Assembly: GCF_041886205.1 (NCBI RefSeq)
Contig: NZ_CP169029.1
Direction: 5' to 3' (one strand)
DNA length: 64,000 bases
DNA from: Escherichia coli
GTDB taxonomy: Bacteria > Pseudomonadota > Gammaproteobacteria > Enterobacterales > Enterobacteriaceae
Shown in pieces: positions 59,589-60,848 of this stretch. A program made the position numbers and the translations under genes. Each line of letters starts with the position of its first letter. The stretch's first letter is position 1. The notes below the pieces were generated by a model. The model was not told the DNA's origin. It ran no database searches and was given only the letters and a program-made list of their open reading frames with translations.

Positions 59589-60848
59589 TCAACCAATCCC
59601 CATGCTTTCAGCCAGTGCTTCCAGCGCCTGTTCAAAACACGCCAGCGGTGCCCGCACAGTGCCTGCGCCAATCTGCCCGATCCCCGCCTCTTTATGGGCG
59701 ATACCGGTATTGATGAGTGGCGTAATGCCGGTTTCTACCACGCGACGAATGTCCAGTCCCAGGCACGCGCCCTGAAAATCCCAGCCTGGGATCTGCAACT
59801 GCATATTGCGCTCAAGGTAAATTTCCGCCATCTCTTCAGATACCGCTCTGGCCGCTTCCATGCCACCCGCACCGACAAAGCGCGTTACGCCAGGCGCTGC
59901 GATCATTGCCGCACCTCCGATACCAAAGGTTTCGGTAATCGCGCTATCGCCCATATCCGGGTTCGCCTGCTCCTGCGAGAAGCCGGTGAAAAACAGACCT
60001 TGCGGAGTGTTTACAGGCGCAGTAAACCAGCGTTCGCCCAGCCCGCTTACCCGAATCCCGAACATATTGCCGTTGCGGGTCATTGCCGTGACGATGCTGC
60101 CTGCGCGGATCATCGCGCCAGCATCCATCGCCGCCTTGCAGTAAGCCATCGCGAGGTTGAGGAAGAACTGATCGGTCACGCTGAGGAAATCCATCACTTC
60201 GGCGATGTGCTGTTTATCATGATCGAGGCGAGCAATTTGTGGGGCCAGCGCACGCATTAACAGTGCAGAGGAAGCAATATTGCGTTGATGGAACTCATCG
60301 CCCATCGTAATGCCCTGCGCCATCATCGCCGTGAGATCGATACCGCGCTCCATGCGCCCCAGCGCCGCGCTTAATACTGGCATTAACACATCGCGCATCC
60401 AGCGATGGCGAGTCAGGACATCTTCGCCGTAAGCGCCAAAACGCATCACTTTGCCGATACCTTCGTTGAGGTTGCAGTACGCCCGGTTGCCGTCGGTCAC
60501 GTTCTCGACCACCAGCATCGGCATACTGGCAGAAGTAATACCGCCCATTGGACCGACGGCATTCACATGGTGACAAGGAATGAAGTTCACTTCCCCCTGC
60601 TCCAGTATTGCCAGCGCCTGCGCTTCATCTTTCACCCAGCCTTCGAACAGACATGCGCCCACGCACGCCCCTTTCATGGGTCCGGTCATCTCCTGCCAGC
60701 GCATTGGCGGCCCGGCGTGAAGCAGTGTTTTGCCCTCGTTTAGTTCGCTGATAAGTGAAGAAGCCGGTTGCACATCCAGCCAGTGTGGACGAGCGCGACG
60801 AATTTGTTCGATAACCGCAGCATTGGCTTGCGCTACTGATGTAAACAT
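59589..60848 (-). CDS. ylbE: YlbE (DUF1116), uninterrupted 419 aa reading frame
   Basis: Single continuous [28 protein letters not shown]... Confidence 0.85.

Follow-up and report, generated by a model that had tools for sequence, protein, structure and literature searches.

Does an uninterrupted ylbE set the Escherichia coli strain analysed here apart from K-12? The question was raised by a first-pass annotation of the window, by which we mean the whole 64,000-nt stretch of E. coli DNA that was analysed (contig NZ_CP169029.1, assembly GCF_041886205.1). It described ylbE as an unbroken ORF of 419 aa and stated that the gene carries a frameshift in MG1655, where it would be annotated in two pieces. 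The description of the window gene is borne out: the ORF list contains a single frame on the minus strand that starts with ATG and runs through 419 codons without an internal stop. Its product matches Pfam PF06545 (AllG, formerly DUF1116) over profile positions 1–215 of 215 with 326.7 bits (E 7.9e-98). Because this score lies far above the curated cut-off of 27 bits, the frame is a real gene and a chance ORF can be excluded. The protein also has the architecture of the AllG family, with a length of ~420 aa and end-to-end homology to a family member of solved structure. An NCBIfam search returned no model that matches YlbE or YlbF. The DNA of the gene matches the ylbE annotated in E. coli strain 214-4 with 100% identity. 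Window ylbE is almost certainly an ordinary functional allG and stands second in the allFGHK operon (fdrA-ylbE-ylbF-ybcF), the features of which are collected in Table 1.

Table 1. Features of the allFGHK locus, in window coordinates.
Feature	Position	Strand	Description	Basis or remark
fdrA (allF)	60858..62525	-	555-aa subunit, SCS-alpha related	Pfam CoA_binding and Ligase_CoA; NCBIfam NF004760 'acyl-CoA synthetase FdrA', 1043.5 bits; PDB 3DMY
ylbE (allG)	59589..60848	-	419-aa subunit of predicted OXTCase	ORF; PF06545; 417/419 identical to MG1655; homology to PDB 3CLQ
ylbF (allH)	58763..59578	-	271-aa subunit	Pfam PF11392 AllH, E 1.6e-29; start as annotated in 214-4 and MG1655
ybcF (allK)	57873..58766	-	297 aa, catabolic carbamate kinase	NCBIfam NF006926 carbamate kinase, 621.1 bits; function from PMC9843812
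allD	62842..63891	+	ureidoglycolate dehydrogenase; would make the oxalurate consumed by OXTCase	divergent from fdrA
allC, 5' end	63913..64000	+	allantoate amidohydrolase	runs past the window end
Five-G run	60593..60597	-	ylbE nt 252–256 (codons Q84-G85-E86)	four G in older K-12 records
ylbE nt 114	60735	-	G (GAG, Glu38) in window and NC_000913.3	A in W3110 and CIT; silent
allD/allF control region	62526..62841		divergent, 316 nt	same length as in MG1655
AllS-binding fragment	~62669-62728			published fragment mapped to window
ArcA-P fragment	~62608-62667			published fragment mapped to window

The comparison with the current MG1655 reference does not sustain the contrast between the two strains. 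In NC_000913.3, direct translation of ylbE (b4572, YP_009029994.1; 548357..549616) yields a single intact CDS of 1260 nt, that is, 419 codons and a stop. A BLASTP alignment of the window protein with its MG1655 counterpart contains no gaps and 417 of 419 residues are identical, the two exceptions being Val72 (Ala in MG1655) and Gly355 (Ser in MG1655). The two genes are separated by 12 substitutions and no indels. The pairwise alignment that the first-pass annotation had itself proposed as a check thus gave the outcome that it had named as refuting the contrast. The statement about MG1655 is wrong for NC_000913.3 and right for papers based on the older reference and for the W3110 record. The two strains share the locus, its neighbours, their spacing, the 419-aa length of the protein and the length of the control region; they differ at the two AllG residues and at ten positions in the allD-allF intergenic region. 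None of the genes of the cluster differs in length from its MG1655 counterpart, the four operon genes contain no internal stop, and the remaining proteins differ from those of MG1655 by 8 aa (FdrA), 2 aa (YlbF), 2 aa (YbcF) and 3 aa (AllD). The locus tag b4572 is out of series, standing between b0518 and b0520, which is consistent with a re-annotation at the ylbE locus.

The frameshift itself can be traced to a small group of records. The ylbE genes of W3110 and strain CIT are 1259 nt long and flagged 'frameshifted', and when aligned with NC_000913.3 they differ only by A in place of G at nt 114 and by one G fewer in the run at nt 252–256. With four G, frame 1 ends in ...EQGK-stop, leaving an ORF of 86 codons; the 334 codons that remain are in a different frame. 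The window has none of these marks of a K-12-type pseudogene (four G, A114, stop after codon 86): it carries five G and G114. The frameshifted genes of W3110 (NC_007779.1) and of strains CIT, LIM and CAR are ~99% identical to the window gene in DNA sequence.

How common is the lesion? Of 5426 complete E. coli genomes, 5417 contain a match that spans at least 80% of ylbE. When the complete genomes were searched with a 71-nt probe in which the four-G run is flanked by K-12 sequence, only 5 of the 5417 gave an exact match. Four of these are listed, namely the RefSeq entry of W3110 (NC_007779.1) and strains CIT, LIM and CAR, all with the allele at the same coordinates (547803 or 547804 onward). 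In a separately assembled MG1655 genome (CP032667.1), 72 nt were aligned to the 71-nt probe, a length that denotes the form with five G. With the gene in nearly all genomes and the four-G allele in so few, uninterrupted ylbE is the normal and ancestral state. The frameshift is a feature of superseded or un-updated K-12 records and neither of E. coli generally nor of current MG1655. A frameshift that is common or phase-variable was considered and rejected, given that the four-G probe is exact in only five genomes and that the four listed are of the K-12 reference type. The weaker reading that the G5 run serves as a slippage-prone on/off switch of the pathway found no support in the same survey.

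In the genome search, two plasmid records also had ylbE matches, and two copies were present in one genome. Database proteins include a few YlbE-YlbF or YlbE-TPP-enzyme fusions, each on one or two contigs; these are probably read-through or assembly artefacts.

The reading in which an intact ylbE distinguishes this strain from K-12, with a working gene here and a broken one in the model strain, draws on four records with a frameshifted ylbE (the RefSeq entry of W3110 and three that resemble MG1655), and on papers that list ylbE among the lesions of the earlier MG1655 reference. In one of these, the ylbE difference in NCM3722 is said to have 'restored an intact ancestral gene' (PMC3045373, 2011); in the other, the reference genotype of MG1655 is given with ylbE as one of its lesions, and ylbE+ denotes the intact form (PMC4759930, 2016). 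However, ylbE is intact at 419 aa in NC_000913.3, the separate MG1655 assembly CP032667.1 is of the five-G form, and the K-12 derivatives RR1, TOP10 and JM109 have full-length ylbE matches that are annotated as normal proteins. Moreover, the working allG of Kim and Kim was cloned from DNA of MG1655, and the wild-type strain formed oxamate from allantoin in their hands. Set beside the scarcity of the four-G allele among complete genomes, these observations leave a strain-specific contrast with K-12 next to no credence.

A related matter is how the four-G allele entered the older records. It may be a genuine slippage mutation in stocks, either in the isolate of MG1655 used for sequencing or in W3110, as opposed to an error of base calling in a homopolymer; we put the chance of a genuine mutation at somewhat below even. 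In its favour, the missing G is linked to a second difference, the substitution at nt 114, which lies outside the homopolymer run, and the W3110 record carries both. Strains compared with the earlier MG1655 reference show a 1-nt insertion at base 253 of ylbE and a silent change at base 114 (PMC4404585); where that paper deals with these differences, it treats them as variation among MG1655 stocks and cites Freddolino et al. 2012 for 'genetic variations in common MG1655 stock cultures'. Against a genuine mutation, the coordinates of the allele are identical across all four listed records. CIT, LIM and CAR were apparently assembled on the old reference, so they provide no independent evidence for the allele. 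The W3110 RefSeq entry NC_007779.1 (547581-548839) still holds ylbE with four G and A114, annotated as a frameshifted pseudogene; either a W3110 stock really carries the mutation, or the entry has gone uncorrected.

The layout of the locus agrees with that of an allFGHK operon: allF, allG, allH and allK follow each other in this order on the same strand, tightly spaced and next to allD. fdrA and ylbE are separated by 9 nt and ylbE and ylbF by 10 nt, whereas there is an overlap of 4 nt between ylbF and ybcF. The start codons of the operon genes are each preceded by a Shine-Dalgarno-like AAGGAG, AAGGGG, GAGGAA or AAGGAA. What the first-pass annotation had said of the surroundings of ylbE, a tightly packed fdrA-ylbE-ylbF-ybcF cluster beside allD and allC, is therefore accurate; allD is divergent and starts 316 nt from fdrA, and allC follows it. 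A scan of the operon region for promoter and terminator consensus sequences gave sites no commoner than in shuffled sequence.

Under anaerobiosis with allantoin, AllS and ArcA, which bind upstream of allF, activate the operon, and EMSA fragments reach from -203 to -144 for AllS and from -142 to -83 for ArcA-P, counted from the allF start (PMC12535856). The allD-allF spacer differs from that of MG1655 by 10 substitutions and no indels, all between -195 and -78 (window 62603-62720). Six lie within the published AllS-binding fragment and three within that of ArcA-P. The 120 nt nearest to allD and the 77 nt directly before allF show no change from MG1655. The substitutions are natural variation.

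The function of the operon is known from K-12. Kim and Kim (2024; PMC11326118) worked with gene deletions as well as with purified protein and identified fdrA-ylbE-ylbF (allFGH) as the genes for oxamic transcarbamylase (OXTCase). In their work, MG1655 growing anaerobically turned 19.5 mM allantoin into 17.7 mM oxamate, whereas single deletions of allF, allG and allH left 0, 0 and 1.2 mM oxamate, respectively, with a rise in oxalate instead. The triple mutant was restored only by allF, allG and allH together. Supplying allG alone to the allG deletion failed to complement it (0 mM oxamate), and because of this failure the authors relied on the triple mutant and on the purified complex. The purified His-tagged AllF-AllG-AllH had a Km of 1.3 mM and a Vmax of 15.4 U/mg for carbamoyl phosphate, and a Km of 36.9 mM and a Vmax of 27.0 U/mg for oxamate (PMC11326118). 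ybcF (allK) has been shown to encode a catabolic carbamate kinase (PMC9843812). In Pfam, PF06545 is now called 'Oxamate carbamoyltransferase subunit AllG', and PF11392 bears the corresponding name for 'AllH'. To call the four genes only partly characterised is accordingly out of date, since the knockout and expression work has been published (PMC11326118, PMC9843812, PMC12535856).

For the proteins of the window, an OXTCase role is inferred by transfer from K-12: it rests on the K-12 experiments, on ~99% protein identity (99.5% for AllG) and on an identical gene organisation, and no observation speaks against it. During anaerobic growth on allantoin, AllD would oxidise ureidoglycolate to oxalurate, which AllFGH would convert with phosphate to carbamoyl phosphate and oxamate. 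AllK would then use carbamoyl phosphate and ADP to form ATP, NH3 and CO2.

An alternative would make FdrA-YlbE-YlbF an enzyme of the acyl-CoA synthetase or oxamate:CoA ligase type, with OXTCase as a side activity. FdrA does have CoA_binding and Ligase_CoA domains and resembles the alpha chain of SCS, and the RefSeq name 'acyl-CoA synthetase FdrA' persists in many genomes. But purified AllFGH runs the reaction of oxamate with carbamoyl phosphate and oxamate formation is lost in the mutants (PMC11326118), and the adjoining carbamate kinase gene fits carbamoyl phosphate as the product. Furthermore, the alignment of FdrA with SCS-alpha chains stops before the place where a phosphohistidine loop would lie, with no histidine in the 17 residues that follow, and a Pfam scan of the operon genes found no ATP-grasp partner. 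We consider a primary CoA-ligase activity highly improbable, and retain the OXTCase assignment.

How the three subunits share the reaction is a separate issue. The alignment of FdrA with SCS-alpha chains ends at residue 289–291 and the next 17 residues, GYTPAVARDENVWFASS, contain no histidine (a result of sequence alignment only). Given the absence of His after residue ~290, we consider SCS-type phosphohistidine chemistry unlikely for AllF. AllF appears to be without the phosphohistidine loop and would act as a scaffold or as a phosphate-binding partner. As a working guess, AllG contributes residues for substrate binding or catalysis.

The only structural relative of AllG is PDB 3CLQ, a conserved protein from Enterococcus faecalis V583 that was deposited without a function (E 1.8e-111, 42% identity). 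Motifs that E. coli AllG shares with 3CLQ are H44, K59, P91-C92-H93, G183-D184-E185, H187 and R189-N190 and, towards the C-terminus, D298-M-G-D301-S-A-I-T-E-T and H385-K386-E387. When gammaproteobacterial homologues are aligned, most of the residues in these motifs are invariant; for K59 and K386-E387, conservation is limited to the comparison with 3CLQ. Substrate binding or catalysis is the obvious role to propose for these polar motifs. The AF2 model of AllG is of moderate quality, with a mean pLDDT of 75.5 and values below 50 for residues 307–357.

AllFGH resembles the classical transcarbamylases (ATCase PyrB, OTCase ArgI/ArgF and YgeW) in catalysing carbamoyl transfer between carbamoyl phosphate and the nitrogen of an amine or amide and, like catabolic OTCase, it feeds a carbamate kinase for ATP. 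OTCace_N and OTCace domains were looked for in AllG by sequence and fold and were not found, nor was there a fold link to the ATCase/OTCase superfamily. It is conceivable, if rather unlikely, that the active site lies in AllG and not in the SCS-like AllF, and that the enzyme stands for a new structural class of carbamoyltransferase. Pro91-Cys92-His93 and Asp298/Asp301 could then support a covalent S-carbamoyl route or general acid-base chemistry, unlike that of ATCase and OTCase.

Elsewhere in the window, nfrB (37408-39614, plus strand), which encodes a c-di-GMP-activated glycosyltransferase of the phage N4 adsorption locus, is, unlike ylbE, a genuine frameshifted pseudogene. It has a 31-nt deletion that corresponds to nt 342–372 of MG1655 nfrB. 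The junction lies at ~37748/37749; the frame stops after 119 codons and the remainder is a separate 619-codon ORF (37755-39614). nfrA (39580-42573), located 3' of nfrB, is intact. tRNA-Arg(UCU) argU (44454-44530, minus strand) is flanked directly by envY and fimZ (window 43647-45405), and DLP12, the 21.3-kb cryptic prophage found at argU in MG1655 (ompT, appY, emrE, nmpC), is absent from this strain.

Two copies of an IS421/IS4-family element, 1369 nt each (18075-19443 and 19927-21295), are inverted, 100% complementary and 483 nt apart. A hokE-like segment of 267 nt also occurs twice (19406-19672 and 21258-21524, 94% identical), and next comes a copy of IS150 at ~21552-22921. In LHM10-1, the closest genome, the equivalent of 18075-21295 contains a single IS421 copy. 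Strain 214-4 carries an island of VgrG/Rhs type VI effectors together with ISAs1 and IS5 between cusS and nfrA, none of which is present in the window (35786-37258 to 37408). Since the VgrG/Rhs island is lacking, the strain background differs from that of 214-4 despite the identical ylbE. The window and 214-4 are also separated by large indels before ~43.5 kb, and the window is closer to LHM10-1 over its first 51.8 kb.

An intact ylbE is nothing new: it is normal in almost every E. coli, and the function of AllG was published in 2024. The practical consequence concerns the databases, because annotation pipelines and anyone else working from older K-12 records or the W3110 RefSeq entry, in which ylbE appears as a pseudogene, could falsely conclude that K-12 lacks oxamate carbamoyltransferase. 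The biochemical interest lies with the enzyme. AllFGH needs three subunits and has no fold relationship to known transcarbamylases and no solved complex, so structural work on it would be new biochemistry. An active site of a new class in AllG would, if real, concern the whole family, and would be nothing special to the copy described here.
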